DNA of 38,006 nt from a virus. Taxonomy: Duplodnaviria > Heunggongvirae > Uroviricota > Caudoviricetes. The stretch is taken from IMG/VR virus record IMGVR_UViG_2778261277_000017, positions 1 to 38,006 of that record, one strand, 5' to 3'. The position numbers and the translations under genes are program-made. Every line of letters begins with the position of its first letter. Position 1 is the first letter of the stretch. The notes under the pieces are model-generated. The model saw nothing but the letters and a program-made list of their open reading frames with translations. It had not been told where the DNA came from and made no database searches. Shown here piece by piece: positions 5,362-37,253 of the stretch.

Positions 5362-5387
5362 CAAAAATAAAGGCCGACTATGCGGCC
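5362..5387 (-). terminator. Rho-independent terminator immediately after the 207-aa gene (minus strand)
   Basis: GGCCG / CGGCC hairpin at 5372-5387 followed on the minus strand by TTTATTTTTGG; overlaps the stop codon of the 207-aa gene. Confidence 0.5.
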
Positions 5388-6001
5388 TCGGAAGGAAGTC
5401 CAATCATCTTATTCAAATCTTCTACCCGTAAAGCAGGAAGTGCTGTACTTGCTTTATCTGCTTCTTTTGGTAGCAACTCTTTGCTTTCAGGCCAAACCTC
5501 AATAAGTCGCTTAACTGTTGTGACTGAGTTTAAAGCAGCCCATACATTTGATTCGATATCCTTTTTCTTTGCTTCAAGTTTTTGTTGTAATGAGCAGATT
5601 TCATCAAACCTTTTTGTTATTTCGTGCTCTGCGTCAAACATGCATTTATCTTTTGTCGGAGTAGGGAGCAATATATCTTCGCCGTTGCCGTCTTTCCCAT
5701 ATGAATGCCATCCAACCCTTCTGCCAGATACAGTCAGATAAATTGAAGTAGAATGAACATCGTATGAGTAAAATGAACATCCCATCTTTCCAAGTTCTTC
5801 ACTTATAGCTACCAACTTGGATGATAACTGATCCACTTCCTCAGTTTTCTTTTTACCGCCAAACGCAATAACTCTGGCGTCAAGTGCAAGCTGGTTCTTT
5901 AACTTTGTTACTTCTTCAAGTTCAGTGAAAACCCCAGACTTAATTAAAGCGTTACGAGCGATTTCCTCTTTCATTCTCGTAGTTAAGCGGATTGATGACA
6001 T
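5378..6001 (-). CDS. Hypothetical 207-aa protein immediately downstream of N, where lambda carries sieB/ral; function unknown
   Basis: ATG at 6001 preceded by GAGAGGAATTAAT Shine-Dalgarno. Hydrophilic, largely helical-looking sequence (MSSIRLTTRMKEEIARNALIKSG...). AT-rich compared with flanking lambda genes. No recognisable lambda Ral sequence present. Confidence 0.6.
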   Translation of the reverse strand: MSSIRLTTRMKEEIARNALIKSGVFTELEEVTKLKNQLALDARVIAFGGKKKTEEVDQLSSKLVAISEELGKMGCSFYSYDVHSTSIYLTVSGRRVGWHSYGKDGNGEDILLPTPTKDKCMFDAEHEITKRFDEICSLQQKLEAKKKDIESNVWAALNSVTTVKRLIEVWPESKELLPKEADKASTALPALRVEDLNKMIGLPSEAA

Positions 6002-6012
6002 ATTAATTCCTC

Positions 6013-6339
6013 TCAAATAAGTGGTTTGCTGCCTAATTTCATTTTCTGGCGGCCTGAACAAGTCACACCCATTTCACTGCGTGGCTTGCTGTACCATGTG
6101 CGCTGATTCTTGCGCTCAATACGTTGCAGGTTGCTTTCAATCTGTTCGTGGTATTCAGCCAGCACCGTAAGGTCTATCGGATTCAGTGCGCTTTCTACTC
6201 GTGATTTCGGTTTGCGATTCAGCGAGAGAATAGGGCGGTTAACTGGTTTTGCGCTTACCCCAACCAACAGGGGATTTGCTGCTTTCCATTGAGCCTGTTT
6301 CTCTGCGCGACGTTCGCGGCGGCGTGTTTGTGCATCCAT
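6013..6339 (-). CDS. N: Antiterminator N (lambda-type, divergent C-terminus)
   Basis: MDAQTRRRERRAEKQAQWKAANPLLVGVSAKPVNRPILSLNRKPKSRVESALNPIDLTVLAEYH... is the lambda N arginine-rich motif and core; the last ~25 residues differ from my recollection of lambda N. Confidence 0.9.
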   Translation of the reverse strand: MDAQTRRRERRAEKQAQWKAANPLLVGVSAKPVNRPILSLNRKPKSRVESALNPIDLTVLAEYHEQIESNLQRIERKNQRTWYSKPRSEMGVTCSGRQKMKLGSKPLI

Positions 6340-6537
6340 CTGGATTCTCCTGTCAGTTAGCTTTGGTGATTGGATGGCCGGCGCTGAACCCCGGCTTACT
6401 GGTTAGAGCGCCCGCACTACCAGTGACGCTGTCTTGAGGCGCAGATTGGTTACTGCTTGCCATGAGCGCTGTTTATACATTGGTCGAGCATCAGCCTGCT
6501 CATTCATCCAATCCCAAAGCCTTCTGCTTTGAATGCT

Positions 6538-6569
6538 ACCCTTCTTCAGGGCTTAATTTTTAAGAGCGT
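6538..6569 (-). promoter_or_regulatory. nutL (boxA + boxB) N-utilisation site
   Basis: Minus-strand reading CGCTCTTAAAAATTAAGCCCTGAAGAAGGGT: boxA CGCTCTTA and boxB hairpin GCCCT-GAAGA-AGGG, in the N leader. Confidence 0.8.
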
Positions 6570-6607
6570 CACCTTCATGGTGGTCAGTGCGTCCTGCTGA
6601 TGTGCTT

Positions 6608-6670
6608 AGTATCACCGCCAGTGGTATTTATGTCAACACCGCCAGAGATAATTTATCACCGCAGATGGTT
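6608..6670 (-). promoter_or_regulatory. oL1-oL2-oL3 operators with pL promoter (lambda immunity)
   Basis: TATCACCGCCAGTGGTA (6610-6626), CAACACCGCCAGAGATA (6634-6650), TATCACCGCAGATGGTT (6654-6670). Minus-strand -35 TTGACA (6631-6636) and -10 GATACT (6608-6613). Confidence 0.9.
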
Positions 6671-6821
6671 ATCTGTATGTTTTTTATATAGATTTATTTT
6701 TTGCAGGGTTGTGTGGATTGGGAAGGTGATCGAGAGATCTGAATTGCGATGTTTAGTGAGTTGTATCTATTAATTTTGAAATAAATACAATTGGTTATGC
6801 GTTTTTTGGGGGGCGTTAGGC

Positions 6822-6847
6822 AAAGAAAACCCGGCGCAGATGCCGGG
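6822..6847 (-). terminator. Rho-independent terminator after the 301-aa gene (end of the cI-distal transcript)
   Basis: CCCGGC-gcagat-GCCGGG hairpin (6830-6847) followed on the minus strand by TTTTCTTTG. Confidence 0.55.
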
Positions 6848-6859
6848 TTGTGGTGGAGA

Positions 6860-7765
6860 TCAATGCTTATTTGGGAGTGCTGGTTTTTTTATCGACTCTA
6901 ATAGCTCGGAGGCGTTACTAATCTTTTTGTTCCCAAGGTAATTTGGCAGTTTTTCCATTGCGTAATTATCGTGTAGCCATTTTCTGAACACGCCAAGTGC
7001 CTCAATAGGATAAATCCAAGCTGTTATATGCTTATTTGCAGCTGACTGCCTGTAATTTTCGGGGAATAAATGTGGGTACTGCACCCTTTCCCCGAATTTC
7101 TCAGATAGCCCATTAGCTGTCCAATACTTTCCCCAGTGAATTCCAACACTTCCATCCAAAGATGTGGTGTCATCCATTGGGAATCCTCCTCCGATCAGGT
7201 TCATGGCAATGTCAGCTATCTCTCTGAATACTGCAAAATGAGTTGTCGGTATCTGATCGTTTAGCTTAATCCTTGCTCTATAGTTCTCGAATGAGATATC
7301 TATTGAAGCATTTGGGTTGTAATTTGACTTTTCATAAATCATTCGCTTAAGCGTGTACTCAGCCAAGCGAACAAAATTACCTATTGCGACTGACCTATCA
7401 AAATTGGTGGCATCTAGAGCGTAGTAACGGAGGATAGCCATGCAAACATAGTCAGGATAAGCATGAGTTTCCACGTTTGAGCTATTTAAAACGCGAGTGT
7501 ATAGCTTTTCGACGTTATGAAACCCTTTCTCAGCTAAATACGCAGCTACTTTTTGACCTCTGGGTTTGTTTTTCTCTGTGTTCCAGTTTGATGTGAACAC
7601 CCTCAGTGGCGTGTCATCAATGCCGCATAACTTTGCGAGACCGTAGAGAGTTAGGTAAGGAGTTCCATCATTGAGAACGCCCATAGGAATATCATCAGAA
7701 ACAACCTCTACTACAGGGAAAAGCTGCATTTGATGCAGGGATTCGCTATTGCTGTTAATCGACAT
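6860..7765 (-). CDS. Hypothetical 301-aa protein in the position lambda uses for rexA-rexB (downstream of cI, before oL); candidate prophage-encoded exclusion/abortive-infection gene
   Basis: Single long ORF co-oriented with cI and followed by a terminator. AT-rich compared with cI. No similarity to RexA/RexB as I recall them; no HExxH motif, so not Lit-like. N-terminal region (LFPVVEVVSDDIPMGVLNDGTPYLTLYGLAKLCGIDD) loosely resembles Bro-N/KilA-N-type domains. Confidence 0.7.
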   Translation of the reverse strand: MSINSNSESLHQMQLFPVVEVVSDDIPMGVLNDGTPYLTLYGLAKLCGIDDTPLRVFTSNWNTEKNKPRGQKVAAYLAEKGFHNVEKLYTRVLNSSNVETHAYPDYVCMAILRYYALDATNFDRSVAIGNFVRLAEYTLKRMIYEKSNYNPNASIDISFENYRARIKLNDQIPTTHFAVFREIADIAMNLIGGGFPMDDTTSLDGSVGIHWGKYWTANGLSEKFGERVQYPHLFPENYRQSAANKHITAWIYPIEALGVFRKWLHDNYAMEKLPNYLGNKKISNASELLESIKKPALPNKH

Positions 7766-7851
7766 ATCTTAATGATTTCCTTATTTTTATTGTAGGGATC
7801 TTCTTTTTTATTTCCTACATCTAGATGCGTATAAAGTCTCTTGCTGCGGAC

Positions 7852-8568
<717 letters not shown>

Positions 8569-8575
8569 TTAAATC

Positions 8576-8640
8576 TATCACCGCGAGGGATAAATATCTA
8601 ACACCGTGCGTGTTGACTATTTTACCTCTAGCGGTGATAA
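8576..8640. promoter_or_regulatory. oR3-oR2-oR1 operators with pR and pRM
   Basis: TATCACCGCGAGGGATA (8576-8592), TAACACCGTGCGTGTTG (8599-8615), TACCTCTAGCGGTGATA (8623-8639). pR -35 TTGACT and -10 GATAAT on the plus strand. Confidence 0.9.
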
Positions 8641-8656
8641 TAGTTGCATGTACTAA

Positions 8657-8866
<210 letters not shown>

Positions 8867-8873
8867 ATAACCC

Positions 8874-8905
8874 CGCTCTTACACATTCCAGCCCTGAAAA
8901 AGGGC
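8874..8905 (+). promoter_or_regulatory. nutR (boxA + boxB)
   Basis: CGCTCTTACACATTCCAGCCCTGAAAAAGGGC: boxA CGCTCTTA and boxB hairpin GCCCT-GAAAA-AGGGC. Confidence 0.85.
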
Positions 8906-8984
8906 ATCAAATTAAACCACACCTATGGTGTATGCATTTATTTGCATACATTCAATCAATTGTTATCTAAGGAAATACTTACAT

Positions 8985-9263
8985 ATGCAACTTACAAGTA
9001 CTCGCAAGAAAGCGAATGCAATTACAAGCAACATCCTGAATCGAATTGCTGTACGTGGTCAGCGAAAGGTTGCCGACGCGTTAGGGATTAATGAATCGCA
9101 AATTTCGCGATGGAAAGACAGCTTCATCCCAAAAATGGGAATGCTTCTGGCTGTTCTTGAATGGGGTGTTGAAGACGAGGAGTTGGCGGAACTGGCTAAG
9201 CAAGTAGCCAGAATGCTGACAAAAGAAAAAGCCCCGAAGAACGGCGAATTCTTCGAGGCCTGA
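8985..9263 (+). CDS. cII: cII-family transcriptional activator (homologue, not lambda cII itself)
   Basis: ATG at 8985 preceded by AAGGAAA. Translation has the cII-like HTH and tail (GINESQISRWKDSFIPKMGMLLAVLEWGV). Upstream non-coding sequence looks lambda-identical but the coding sequence diverges. Confidence 0.8.
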   Translation: MQLTSTRKKANAITSNILNRIAVRGQRKVADALGINESQISRWKDSFIPKMGMLLAVLEWGVEDEELAELAKQVARMLTKEKAPKNGEFFEA

Positions 9264-9297: not shown

Positions 9298-9459
9298 ATG
9301 ACAAAACGTCGTAAGAAATACCAGGAAAAAGAAGAGATTCGACACCCTGATTCACCTGAGGGATTAGTGGTAGCCGCAGCAAATAACAGGGCGTTCGCAG
9401 AACGCCTTGTTGGTGTTTACAGACTAGCCAAAGCAGGAGTGAAACATGGGCGTCGTTAA
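9298..9459 (+). CDS. Small basic hypothetical protein (53 aa) between cII and the O-like gene
   Basis: ATG at 9298 preceded by AGGAG at good spacing; [53 protein letters not shown]. Overlaps the O-like start by 14 nt. Below the ORF-track cutoff. Confidence 0.4.
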   Translation: MTKRRKKYQEKEEIRHPDSPEGLVVAAANNRAFAERLVGVYRLAKAGVKHGRR

Positions 9460-10267
9460 GTTAGCTGATTACAGGCCTCAACTGGAGGTCGTGGAGCATC
9501 GCGTGGCAGATACCGAAGATGGTTTCATGCGCGTTGCTAACGAGATTACCGACAGTCTGCTGATGGCTGATTTAACCGTCCGGCAGTTGAAGGTGATGCT
9601 CGCTATCATGCGCAAGACATACGGATTCAATAAGCCGATGGATCGACTCACAAACACGCAGATAGCAGCCATGACAGGTATTCATCACACTCATGTTTGC
9701 GCTGCCAAGCGCCAGCTTATTGAGCGTAAATTCCTCATTGCTGATGGCGTGAAAATCGGAGTGAACAAGGTGGTTTCTCAGTGGATTAGCCAGGACAGCT
9801 TAACATTAGCTAAAACAGCTAATAAAACATTAGCCAAGTCGGCTAATGGGTATAAGCCAAGTCAGCTAAACACAAAAGACAATATACAAAAGACAATAAA
9901 TACAAATACCCCCTTACCCCCTAACGGGGGCGGCGATGGGCAGGTTAAACCTGAACGTCGCAAGGCAGAACGAATCGACTACGAATCCTTCCTGAACGCC
10001 TACAACACCGAAGTCGGTGACAGACTTCCACACGCTGTTGCGGTCAACGAGAAACGAAAACGCCGCCTGAAGAAAATCATCCCGCAACTGAAAACGCCAA
10101 ACGTGGACGGTTTCAGAGCGTATGTCAGGGCGTTTGTGCATCAGGCCAAGCCGTTTTACTTCGGAGACAACGACACGGGCTGGACGGCTGATTTTGATTA
10201 CCTGCTGAGAGAAGATTCGTTAACGGGAGTTCGTGAAGGGAAGTTTGCAGACAGGGGGATTGCATGA
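9446..10267 (+). CDS. Replication initiator, phage O-like
   Basis: N-terminal region [34 protein letters not shown] resembles the lambda O DNA-binding domain as recalled; AGGAG Shine-Dalgarno; ATGA overlap with the downstream helicase. Confidence 0.8.
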
Positions 10268-11640
10268 AACAGGATATCGAAGCGAGCGTTATCGGTGGCC
10301 TGCTGATTGGTGGATTAACACCAACTGCCAGTGACGTTCTGGCAACGCTTGAGCCGGAAGCGTTTTCAATTCCGCTCTACCGGAAAGCCTTCGAGGTTAT
10401 CCGCAAGCAGGCGCGAAACAGAAATTTAATCGACGCGCTGATGGTCGCCGAGGCGTGCGGAGAGGAGCATTTCACGTCAATCCTGATGACCAGCAAAAAC
10501 TGCCCGAGTGCCGCAAACCTGAAGGGATATGCCGGAATGGTCGCGGATAACTATCACCGCCGTCTGGTGCTGGAAATCATGGATGAAATGCGTGAACCAA
10601 TTCAGAGCGGAACCATCGACGCATCGAGTCAGGCGATGGATGAGCTTGTAAAGCGTCTTTCAGCCATCAGAAAGCCCCGTGACGAGGTTAAACCTGTACG
10701 GTTAGGGGAAATCATCACCGACTACACTGACACGCTTGACAGGCGTCTGAGGAACGGAGAAGAGTCAGATACCCTGAAGACCGGAATCGAAGAACTTGAT
10801 GCCATCACCGGAGGGATGAACGCGGAAGACCTGGTGATAATCGCTGCTCGTCCTGGTATGGGGAAAACCGAACTGGCGCTGAAGATTGCCGAAGGCGTTG
10901 CAAGCCGCGTTATTCCTGGTTCTGACGTCCGGCGCGGGGTATTGATTTTCTCAATGGAAATGAGCGCATTGCAGATTGCAGAGCGAAGCATTGCCAACGC
11001 CGGGAGGATGTCGGTTAGCGTACTGCGAAATCCTGCATCGATGGATGACGAGGGCTGGGCACGTGTTGCTAACGGCATGAGTCAGCTTGCAGATTTGGAT
11101 GTATGGGTAGTCGATGCCTCGCGGTTATCGGTCGAAGAAATTCGCTCAATCGCAGAACGGCACAAACAGGAAAATCCAAATCTGTCACTCATCATGGCGG
11201 ATTATCTTGGCCTGATTGAGAAGCCGAAAGCAGACCGCAACGACCTCGCAATTGCTCACATCTCAGGAAGCCTGAAGGCGATGGCGAAAGACCTGAAAAC
11301 GCCTGTTATCTCCCTAAGTCAACTTTCGCGCGATGTTGAGAAGCGACCAAACAAACGCCCGACAAACGCAGATTTGCGTGATTCAGGAAGCATTGAACAG
11401 GACGCAGACTCAATCATCATGCTCTATCGGGAAGCGGTATATGACGAGAACAGTAGCGCCGCGCCATTTGCTGAAATCATCGTGACGAAAAACCGTTTTG
11501 GCTCACTTGGTACGGTTTACCAGCGGTTCTGCAACGGACACTTTGTTGCATGTGACCAGGATGAAGCCAGACAGATTTGCACAGCATCAAATGCACCTGC
11601 TGCTCGTGGCAGACGATATGCACAAGGGGCTGACGTATGA
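10264..11640 (+). CDS. Replicative DNA helicase, DnaB family (in place of lambda P)
   Basis: 458-aa ORF with Walker A ([16 protein letters not shown]) and overall DnaB-like architecture. Confidence 0.9.
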
Positions 11641-34682: not shown

Positions 34683-35881
34683 TGGCTCTGAACCTTGATT
34701 CTCTCGGTTTATCTGCAAAGGTAACCGCGGAGGGGATCAGTGCGCCTGATTATCAGACGATACTCAGCACCCTGATTAGCTATTTTCAGCAGATTTATGG
34801 CAGTGATGCCTACCTCGAACCGGACAGCAAAGACGGCCAGATGGTGGCTCTGATGGCGCTGGCGATTCATGATGCCAATAATACGGCGATAACTGTCTAC
34901 AACTGTTTTTCACCGGCAACCGGCTATGGGGCTGCACTGACCAGTAACGTGAAAATAAATGGTATTTCACGTAAAGGCGCGACGAACTCTACGGTTGATT
35001 TGCTTCTTACAGGAACTGCCGGAACAACCATCATTAATGGCAGCGTGAAAGACAGTAATAATGTGATATGGCGTTTGCCTGCTTCAGTGGTGGTCGGCGT
35101 GGATGGTACAGTGATGGTGACCGCAACATGTTCCGTCAGTGGTGCAGTGGCGGCGCTGGCTGGAACTATCACTGAAATTAATACGCCAACCCGTGGCTGG
35201 GTTTCGGTAACCAATCCTGCTGCAGCTACTGTAGGCACTCCAGCAGAAACTGATGCGGAGTTACGTATCCGCCAGTCGCAAAGTGTTGCGTTGCCATCAA
35301 TAACCCCATTTGAAGCACTGGATGGTGCCGTTTCTAATGTTACCGGTGTAACCCGCCACAAACTCTATGAAAACGATACTGGTTCGGAGGACGGTAACGG
35401 GTTACCGCCACACTCTGTTGCTGTAATTGTGGATGGCGGTGATGTGACGGATATTGCTCAGGCTATCAGAGGGAATAAAGGTCAGGGGACAGCCACTCAC
35501 GGTACAACATCCGTTACGGTTCCGGATAAATACGGCAATCCCCATGTAATCAAATTCTCGCGTTCCAGTGATGTACCTGTTTATGCCCGGATTAAATTAA
35601 AAGTTTTTACGGGTTATACCTCACAGATAGGGCAACAGATCCAGCAGGCTATTTCCGACTATATCAATAGTCTGATGATTGGTGATTCGGTCCTTTTAAG
35701 TCGCATTTACTCACCGGCGAATCTTGGCGTGGTGAGTGGCGGGAATGCACGCTATTACGATATTCAGGAACTGACGATTGGGAAATCCCCGGGGGCTTTG
35801 TCGTCATCAAACATTGATATCAGATACAACGAATCTGCGTCCTGTACCCCGGAAAATATCGTTATAACGGTGGAGTCATGA
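34682..35881 (+). CDS. Baseplate J-like protein
   Basis: 399-aa ORF following the gpW-like gene, as in P2/Mu-type baseplate clusters. Confidence 0.55.
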   Translation: MALNLDSLGLSAKVTAEGISAPDYQTILSTLISYFQQIYGSDAYLEPDSKDGQMVALMALAIHDANNTAITVYNCFSPATGYGAALTSNVKINGISRKGATNSTVDLLLTGTAGTTIINGSVKDSNNVIWRLPASVVVGVDGTVMVTATCSVSGAVAALAGTITEINTPTRGWVSVTNPAAATVGTPAETDAELRIRQSQSVALPSITPFEALDGAVSNVTGVTRHKLYENDTGSEDGNGLPPHSVAVIVDGGDVTDIAQAIRGNKGQGTATHGTTSVTVPDKYGNPHVIKFSRSSDVPVYARIKLKVFTGYTSQIGQQIQQAISDYINSLMIGDSVLLSRIYSPANLGVVSGGNARYYDIQELTIGKSPGALSSSNIDIRYNESASCTPENIVITVES

Positions 35882-36558
35882 GCAAATACACCGAACTAAT
35901 CACGAACTACCACGCCACCAAACCTAAATTTCTTGCGCATGTTGATCTGATGACCCGGCCACTTATTGATGTTGCGGCTGCCACCAGAGGGCTGATTACT
36001 GCATTTGATATTGACTCTGCGGTTGGTGTGCAACTTGACATTCTTGGATTGTGGATCGGACGTAGCCGTGTTGTCAGCCAGCCTATCTCAGGTGTCTATT
36101 TCAGCTGGGATACCGACGGGCTTGGATATGATCAGGGTGTATGGCAGGGGCCATACGATCCTGATTCCGGATACATGTACCTCAGCGATGAAACTTATCG
36201 TGTCATCCTTAAAGCGAAGATTGCGATTAATAACTGGGATGGACGGAATGATTCGCTTCCGGCAATTCTTGACGCGGCGACAGCAGGATCCGGACTGCGA
36301 ATGCAGATAGTCGATAACCAGGACATGACGATATCGGTCTGGGTCTTTCCTGATACTGATATTTCAGATGTATCGCGTGAGTTAATTGCTGCAATTAAAC
36401 AGGGATATCTCACAGTAAAAGCCGCCGGTGTGTGGGCGGGTGGCATTGAAACACCTTCGGTGGAAACCCCATCGGAAGGTTCAAAATTTTTTGGTTTTGA
36501 TATGGATAACGAATTCATCAGTGGTTTTGATGTAGGGGCATGGGGAGTATTACTCTGA
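35878..36558 (+). CDS. Tail protein (gpI-like)
   Basis: 226-aa ORF, ATGA-coupled, immediately upstream of the tail fibre gene. Confidence 0.5.
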
Positions 36559-37253
36559 TGGCGAAAAATGACTTTAAAGCGTTTGCAACGGATCGAAATG
36601 CCAATGTTATGTCGCAGGAGGAATGGGAAGCGTTGCCTGCGCTTTTATCCGGATTTACAGCAGGGAAAGCATCCAGTGCGCAAGTCAATAAGGTTATTCG
36701 GCAGGCCAGCTTTATTGCTGCAGCTCTGGCCCAGTTTGTAAGTGACAAAACGCAACGGGATGTGCTTGATAATGGTGATCTGCCCGGTTTTGTTGAATTG
36801 CTGGGATCGGGGTTTGCTGTTGAATACCTGAGCCGCAAGAATCCGTTTGGTGATATCAAATCGGATGGCACGGTGAAAACGGCTCTCGAAAACCTTGGTT
36901 TGGGAGAAGCGGCGAAAAGGGATGTGGGCACAGGAGATAATCAGATACCGGATATGGGAGCATTCGCTTCTGGTTCGGGATGGTTCAGGCTACCAGGTGG
37001 ATATATTGTTCAGTTTGGCACTTTTGCAGGAAACACGACCCGCTTTATCAGTGGACACTTCCCTATACCATTCCCTAATCAGCCGATGGTTTCAGTCAGT
37101 GTTATGTCTGATGCCGTTCAGTCAGACCCGTCGATTCCTGCCCCGCAGGTTTTGTCTGTAAATTTTGAACATATCAGTAATTCAGCGTGGCGTGTGGCAA
37201 CCAGTGATATCTCACAGCAATACAGATTCAGTTATATTTCGATAGGACGGTAG
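36558..37253 (+). CDS. Tail fibre protein, with a constant N-terminal part and a C-terminal part lying in a putative invertible segment
   Basis: N-terminus [29 protein letters not shown]... is typical of side tail fibre proteins; followed by a Tfa gene; contains the hix-like site at 36883-36908. Confidence 0.75.
36883..36908. other. Candidate Hin/Gin/Pin/Cin-family DNA invertase crossover site (hix/gix-like, 26 bp)
   Basis: CTCTCGAAAACC-TT-GGTTTGGGAGAA: 12-bp imperfect inverted half-sites around a 2-bp core, close to the recalled hixL/gixL pattern (TTnTCnAAAACC nn GGTTTnGAnAA). Lies inside the tail fibre gene. Confidence 0.55.

Follow-up and report, generated by a model that had tools for sequence, protein, structure and literature searches.

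The bstA-Ec defence gene in the rexAB position of a lambda-immunity prophage, and a candidate aba element astride its start codon

Organisation of the immunity region

The window, by which we mean the whole stretch of 38,006 nucleotides that was analysed (IMG/VR record IMGVR_UViG_2778261277_000017, a virus of the Caudoviricetes), carries an immunity region of the lambda type in which a single gene for a 301-aa protein follows cI on the same strand, in the place held in lambda by rexA and rexB (Table 1). This replacement had been proposed in a sequence-only reading of the window and is borne out both by the ORF list and by BLASTN comparison with lambda. The same reading had described cI, oR, cro, oL and N as those of lambda, and this also holds: besides the cI and N genes listed in the table, Cro is identical to lambda Cro at 66/66 aa, whilst oL1, oL2, oL3 and oR2 match lambda exactly and oR1 and oR3 are each one base off. 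On the left, the immunity region is bounded by the pL/oL block; for the oR block, the operator and promoter annotation of phage CL707 was carried over to the window via a coordinate offset. The one-base-variant operators are oR3 (TATCACCGCGAGGGATA, 8576-8592) and oR1 (TACCTCTAGCGGTGATA, 8623-8639), and they occur alongside a cI that is two residues off that of lambda.

Table 1. Features of the bstA-Ec locus and its surroundings in the window (nucleotide positions of the window, or residues of the protein where indicated).
Feature	Position	Strand	Details
N gene	6013..6339		lambda-like
pL + oL1/oL2/oL3	6608..6670	minus	exact lambda operators at 6610, 6634 and 6654; promoter-like site 6636-6608
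t_imm intrinsic terminator	6828..6849	minus	8-bp stem then TTCTTT; terminator scan; Timm in CL707
bstA-Ec CDS	6860..7765	minus	301 aa, ATG start, stop codon 6860-6862; ORF list
Candidate aba-Ec	7737..7799	minus	63 bp: 34 bp upstream of ATG + first 29 bp of gene
cI-bstA spacer	7766..7851	minus	86 bp; RBS AAGGA at 7778-7782; no terminator-like site between cI and bstA-Ec on the minus strand in the terminator scan
Lambda-type cI	7852..8565	minus	237 aa; HTH_3 + Peptidase_S24 domains; 235/237 aa identical to lambda cI
oR3-oR2-oR1 + divergent pRM/pR	8572..8641	no strand	oR2 exact at 8599; pR-like site 8613-8641
N-terminal DNA-binding-like domain	about residues 14-150		bstA-Ec product
C-terminal domain BstA_C	about residues 150-301		bstA-Ec product

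The extent of the replacement could be read from the two blocks of DNA homology that flank the gene. One block covers window 7852-8987 (lambda 37227-38362, 98.2% identity) and begins at the cI stop codon, the other covers window 6513-6849 (lambda 35494-35826, 91.4% identity) and ends at the rexB stop codon. As lambda homology stops and resumes at these edges, the replaced segment is lambda 35827-37226 (1400 bp comprising rexB, rexA and the cI-rexA spacer), which has been swapped for window 6850-7851 (1002 bp). Within that segment BLASTN against lambda detected no rexA or rexB homology, so that a check for Rex relatives between the two lambda-homologous blocks came out negative. The terminator, a strong one whose stem lies 10 bp beyond the stop of the ORF, had been taken to be the gene's own; it falls inside the lambda-homologous block, however, and is thus lambda t_imm rather than an element borne by the gene.

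The same arrangement is found in other deposited sequences. The immunity region of phage CL707 (EF120459), which belongs to a deposited set of lambda-immunity regions, is identical to that of the window at the level of 99.9%; its ORF CL70704 encodes an identical protein annotated as a "hypothetical protein", and the record differs by an IS10 located left of N. A literature search on the name of this phage gave no relevant paper. The spacer between cI and the 301-aa gene is identical in CL707 and in Escherichia coli NCTC10963, and the gene order, with cI followed by the gene on the same strand, is the same in 10 other contigs with an identical protein.

Outside of this region the prophage departs from lambda, its lambda identity being confined to the immunity region. 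Just after N lies a gene on the minus strand (5378-6001) for a 207-aa Nmad5 protein (PF18757, "nucleotide modification associated domain 5", E 2e-71), at the site of the lambda sieB/ral accessory-gene region; it is a further variable accessory gene. The replication genes (9446-11640, plus strand) differ from lambda O and P and comprise a gene for a 273-aa O-like protein followed by a 458-aa ORF; the NCTC10963 prophage has the same gene pair, with the 458-aa product annotated as a DnaB-type helicase.

Identity of the 301-aa protein

Profile and sequence searches agree in placing the 301-aa protein in the BstA family. The PADLOC model for BstA matches residues 8-286 (E 1.3e-105, profile positions 4-281 of 292), with one weak HTH model as the only other result of that scan, and PHROG 6287 ("BstA abortive infection system, replication inhibitor") matches over profile positions 3-304 of 304 (E 6e-133). 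BLASTP against BstA of Salmonella phage BTP1, which was found by tblastn of phage genomes, gave 42% identity over residues 2-300, or 99% of the length (E 5e-84). Precomputed Pfam annotation assigns PF26567 (BstA_C) to the protein and to nearly all of its relatives; our own Pfam (E up to 10) and NCBIfam scans of the protein returned nothing, and the Pfam-A copy used seems to be without the recent PF26567.

An exact look-up took the identification further, since the same 301-aa protein is encoded at CAADJH010000002.1 1520979-1521884 in E. coli NCTC10963, and strain, contig and position are those of bstA-Ec (E4V89_RS07420) in Owen et al. 2021 (PMC8585504, Table S1 and methods). From the 3' end of cI through t_imm, the only difference between NCTC10963 and the window is a single base within a homopolymer past the terminator. 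The cloning primers of that study (NW_761/764 and NW_762/765; PMC8585504) map by their 3' parts to window 6799-7851: GTCCGCAGCAAGAGACTTTATACG corresponds exactly to 7851-7828 and GCGTTTTTTGGGGGCGTTAGGC to 6799-6821 bar one G in a run. As primers and DNA alignment agree, window 6799..7851 on the minus strand corresponds to the insert that served Owen et al. as their bstA-Ec locus. We therefore identify the gene, with high confidence, as bstA-Ec, encoding a BstA-family prophage abortive-infection protein in the rexAB slot of a lambda-immunity prophage. The sequence-only reading had left it between a BstA-like protein and something new: the full identity to BstA-Ec together with the PADLOC and PHROG matches over the length of the protein settles this in favour of the former, and the gene is already known, as a published and experimentally tested defence gene.

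Copies of the gene occur in about 33 of 5,426 complete E. coli genomes, and many public assemblies also have it (1,445 blocks of an indexed collection), with RefSeq labels varying among near-identical records between "hypothetical protein" and "BstA C-terminal domain-containing protein". E. coli PK12 (CP074031.1) harbours two prophages, at 1.57 Mb (L007) and 3.92 Mb (L008), which both encode identical BstA-Ec; in both, the gene lies downstream of a different repressor of 231 aa and not of lambda cI, which indicates that the bstA module moves between immunity types. Co-resident prophages that share one BstA-aba pair in this way should be mutually immune to each other's BstA.

Published activity and relation to known systems

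BstA proteins are reported to collect at replicating phage DNA, to stop phage DNA replication and to cause abortive infection (PMC8585504). BstA-Ec expressed in Salmonella LT2 gave resistance to Salmonella phages at about the level of BstA-BTP1, and BTP1 itself was blocked too (PMC8585504, Figure 3A); the assays of abortive infection and of the replication block that the text describes used BstA-BTP1 (PMC8585504). The prophage evades its own BstA by means of aba, a DNA element within the bstA locus (PMC8585504). In BTP1, aba was mapped to 63 bp consisting of 29 bp upstream and the first 34 bp of the gene; its ends are CCCGCC direct repeats, and a single base change in either copy abolishes function (PMC8585504). 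The BTP1 element acts in trans as promoterless multicopy DNA in a copy-number-dependent manner (PMC8585504), and immunity is cognate: P22 carrying the bstA-Ec locus became immune to BstA-Ec only, and the aba of BTP1 gives no protection against BstA-Ec (PMC8585504). For BstA-Ec, the evidence on defence and immunity comes from this one paper and from a heterologous host, Salmonella LT2 (PMC8585504), and our literature search found no later mechanistic papers on BstA.

The same study equates the bstA slot with lambda rexAB (PMC8585504). Because the protein is the tested BstA-Ec and the slot is that of rexAB, the suggestion that this cI-linked slot is a site for abortive-infection genes was correct. 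RexA and RexB of lambda have in common with BstA-Ec the position between cI and oL, co-transcription with cI, t_imm and a role in abortive infection by the prophage; however, Rex consists of two genes and BstA of one, there is no sequence relationship, and the reported targets differ, being the membrane potential for Rex and phage DNA replication for BstA (PMC8585504).

Amongst the BstA loci themselves, that of NCTC10963 is closest to the window: its protein is 100% identical, a lambda-type cI lies upstream, and O/DnaB-type replication genes lie further on. The NCTC10963 prophage is nonetheless a different mosaic: left of N it has an Erf recombinase among genes that differ from those of the window (Nmad5, DUF2528, Gam, RecT and YqaJ). 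BTP1, a P22-like phage as opposed to the lambda immunity of the window, resembles the bstA-Ec locus in full-length homology of the protein, in its two-domain layout and in the location of the gene just downstream of the repressor, and shares with it a pair of direct repeats placed across the start codon with a spacing of 56-57 bp. The repeated word differs (CCCGCC in BTP1, ATCCCT in the window), which fits the published cognate specificity.

Paired direct repeats at BstA loci

In order to survey such repeats over the family, we took 80 BstA loci, one genome per species (76 after removal of near duplicates), took the codon of the invariant Gly29 as anchor and screened the 173 nt upstream of that codon for direct repeats without mismatch. 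In 37 of the 76 loci such a repeat, 7 nt or longer, occurs with a period of 56 or 57, compared with 4, 4 and 0 in three control regions, and the longest repeat of a locus fell on one of these two periods in 33/76 cases where 2.5 would be expected; the surveyed loci are kin, and these counts are hence not independent events. In 32/76 loci, neither period yields an exact repeat of 6 nt or more. Where the pair occurs, its first copy has a constant position and its sequence is specific to the locus (41 different words in 44 loci): examples are CCCGCCA (BTP1), GATCGCCA, GATCCC, GGTCACC, TTGGTCACC, AAGGAAATCACC and CGCGATCACCCC. A homologue from Klebsiella pneumoniae has AGAACAGCT at -33 and +23 (period 56).

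The two copies of a locus change together, since a repeat of at least 7 nt is present in 57% of native loci, and in 14% of chimeras whose upstream and downstream halves stem from different loci. The constraint lies on the DNA and not on the protein, given that period 56, which is not a multiple of 3, and period 57 both occur and that the first copy in enterobacterial loci sits upstream of the start codon. We did not find this family-wide pattern in the text or supplements of PMC8585504, nor in the later papers that we searched.

Some alphaproteobacterial loci show a more elaborate arrangement. In loci such as L047, L052, L063, L065 and L092 the repeats reach up to 19 nt and are based on AAGGAAATCA, and about 21 nt past the first copy there follows a related third one (GGAATCA); a secondary period of 36 is seen with repeats of at least 7 nt in 9 loci. 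Certain alphaproteobacterial ORFs extend upstream of the first copy, which may therefore be inside the gene in these loci, and period 57 preserves the reading frame. AAGGAAATCA occurs once in the window, at the bstA RBS between the ATCCCT copies.

A candidate aba element at the bstA-Ec locus

In the window, the direct repeats are ATCCCT at 7794-7799 (-34) and at 7737-7742 (+23 from the ATG), with a period of 57 and a total span of 63 bp, and they form the sole pair of this type in the 38 kb. Location and spacing agree with those of the aba mapped in BTP1, where CCCGCC repeats with period 56 bound a stretch of 63 bp. As the repeat pair, its spacing and its position all follow the pattern seen over the family, we propose 7737-7799 as candidate aba-Ec on the basis of sequence comparison; the DNA that gave cognate immunity in P22 is present unchanged in the window, and the ATCCCT pair lies within it.

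The main alternative is that the gene is indeed BstA-Ec and that its self-immunity element resides elsewhere in the 1.05-kb fragment, the ATCCCT pair being due to chance or serving another purpose. Immunity was demonstrated for the whole bstA-Ec locus only (PMC8585504), which leaves room for such a location, and the Ec repeat, at only 6 nt (7 if written RATCCCT), is the shortest in the family list. Of simulated regions of this kind, 8.5% contained a pair of 6 nt or more with period 56 or 57 at one position or another. Moreover, in near relatives (L013 and L014, with 97% and 95% protein identity, and also XH990, described below) the two copies differ by one mismatch, whereas single changes kill the BTP1 element. 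Against this, the ATCCCT pair falls within 1-2 bases of the family position, where simulation gives a pair of 6 nt or more a probability of 0.007, and throughout the BstA family one finds again this spacing, a pair that spans the start codon, and copies that vary together from locus to locus. We thus grant an element elsewhere in the fragment appreciable weight, somewhat short of an even chance. No enrichment of RATCCCT was seen elsewhere in the prophage (7 occurrences compared with 8.4 expected).

A second alternative is that the paired repeats serve mainly as an operator for autoregulation by BstA, instead of or besides acting as an immunity element. The ATCCCT copies do flank the RBS and the start codon, and the N-terminal domain of BstA is helix-turn-helix-like; the BTP1 repeats, on the other hand, suppress BstA in trans when supplied as promoterless multicopy DNA (PMC8585504), which argues against a role of this kind, and we consider it unlikely.

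Two further observations concern the repeats of the candidate aba-Ec. The idea that GATC within the repeats of several enterobacterial loci ties aba, through Dam methylation, to hemimethylated replicating DNA was dropped: the BTP1 aba is without GATC and the second Ec copy reads AATCCCT. GATC occurs within the repeat word at L015, L026, L013, L014 and L093 (XH990), and in the window in the first copy alone (7794-7800, GATCCCT, compared with AATCCCT in the second). It is probably not a general feature of the repeats, and could have a bearing on aba acting only on replicating multicopy DNA. Furthermore, a small hairpin (CTGCATCAAATGCAG, followed by CTTTTCC; window 7724-7738, minus strand) begins within the second ATCCCT copy. 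Visual inspection of the alignment shows another hairpin, of 5 bp, in the same place in XH990 (AGGGTgaattACCCT), and BTP1, likewise inspected by eye, has AGGAAA...TTTCCT after the second repeat. The hairpin at 7724-7738 could belong to aba or act as an attenuator, or it could simply result from the conserved Leu-Phe-Pro-Val codons.

Domain structure of BstA-Ec and a mosaic allele

An AF2 model of BstA-Ec, based on an alignment with 54 family members, predicts two globular domains with a mean pLDDT of 85 and a pTM of 0.52, the low pTM being in keeping with two domains that have little contact with each other. The disordered and variable part of the protein is residues 1-13, and it is these that overlap the candidate aba element. 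Comparison of the full model with the PDB by Foldseek, which had been recommended as a check, returned nothing below E 0.9, and a PDB sequence search gave matches at chance level only (8vz6, "Abi family protein", E 0.47); going by these comparisons of the model and the sequence, the C-terminal effector domain is an orphan without a convincing PDB relative.

For the N-terminal domain, the sequence-only reading had noted a loose resemblance to Bro-N/KilA-N, and a KilA-N label is also the published HHpred result (PMC8585504); we could reproduce no support for it, with no match to the Pfam profiles of KilA-N or Bro-N in the protein or in any of the 54 family members (E up to 0.1). A few of these members do give weak helix-turn-helix matches, and for these two reasons the domain is here called DNA-binding-like. 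That the protein is a Bro-N/KilA-N antirepressor or another regulator of phage development rather than a defence protein is very improbable: in addition to the missing profile matches, its sequence is that of a protein with demonstrated defence activity, and Owen et al. report, to judge from a section title, no effect of BstA on lysogenic development (PMC8585504). Still less probable is exclusion of the Rex type through membrane depolarisation, for which the shared slot with rexAB would speak, given that the replaced segment has no DNA similarity to lambda rexA or rexB, that PADLOC gives BstA and one weak HTH model, that a single gene with two predicted globular domains is present, and that Owen et al. 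describe Rex and BstA as mechanistically not comparable (PMC8585504).

The bstA allele of E. coli XH990 (L093, NZ_CP019359.1, 2760-3830), when aligned with window 6800-7900, proved to be a mosaic. Its 3' two-thirds (from window 7480 down to t_imm) match the window at about 100% identity; identity falls to 75-80% in the first 285 nt of bstA and to 57% in the region of aba and the start codon, where other repeats (GATCTCA/GATCGCA) occupy the same position with the same spacing. All amino-acid differences from BstA of the window are in residues 1-93. Since divergence is limited to the N-terminal domain and the candidate aba, the alignment suggests that both were exchanged together as one block, which is what would be expected if the N-terminal domain recognises the repeats.

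From the survey and this allele, we propose that aba has one architecture throughout the family, namely a short, locus-specific word (variants of an nnTCnCC-like core) in direct orientation, with copies 56-57 bp apart astride the start codon, that it is read by the approximately 95 N-terminal residues of the cognate BstA, so that swaps of aba plus N-terminal domain would re-key immunity, and that aba-Ec is 7737-7799. To this proposal as a whole we assign an even chance of being right.

Proposed mode of action and implications

Based on the layout of the locus, bstA-Ec would be transcribed in the lysogen together with cI from pRM to t_imm, with the cI promoters pRM and pRE presumably both driving the gene. 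Upon entry of a foreign, sensitive phage, BstA would gather at the replicating phage DNA and replication would fail; the infected cell would then die with little or no progeny, sparing the remainder of the lysogen population. When the prophage itself is induced, the aba DNA, by then in many copies, would neutralise the cognate BstA and no other. In the bstA-Ec locus this DNA would be the 63 bp of 7737-7799, with its ATCCCT repeats 57 bp apart astride the start codon, and the DNA-binding-like N-terminal domain of BstA would be the part that reads these repeats.

The bstA-Ec gene of the window is in itself one more copy of a published defence gene, and its practical value lies in annotation. What this work adds is a modest, comparative lead on the position of aba. 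Should aba generally take the form of repeats spaced by 56-57 bp, the cognate immunity element of any BstA locus would become predictable from sequence, the part of BstA that determines specificity would be narrowed to the N-terminal domain, and how aba DNA switches BstA off would be directly testable with defined binding sites.
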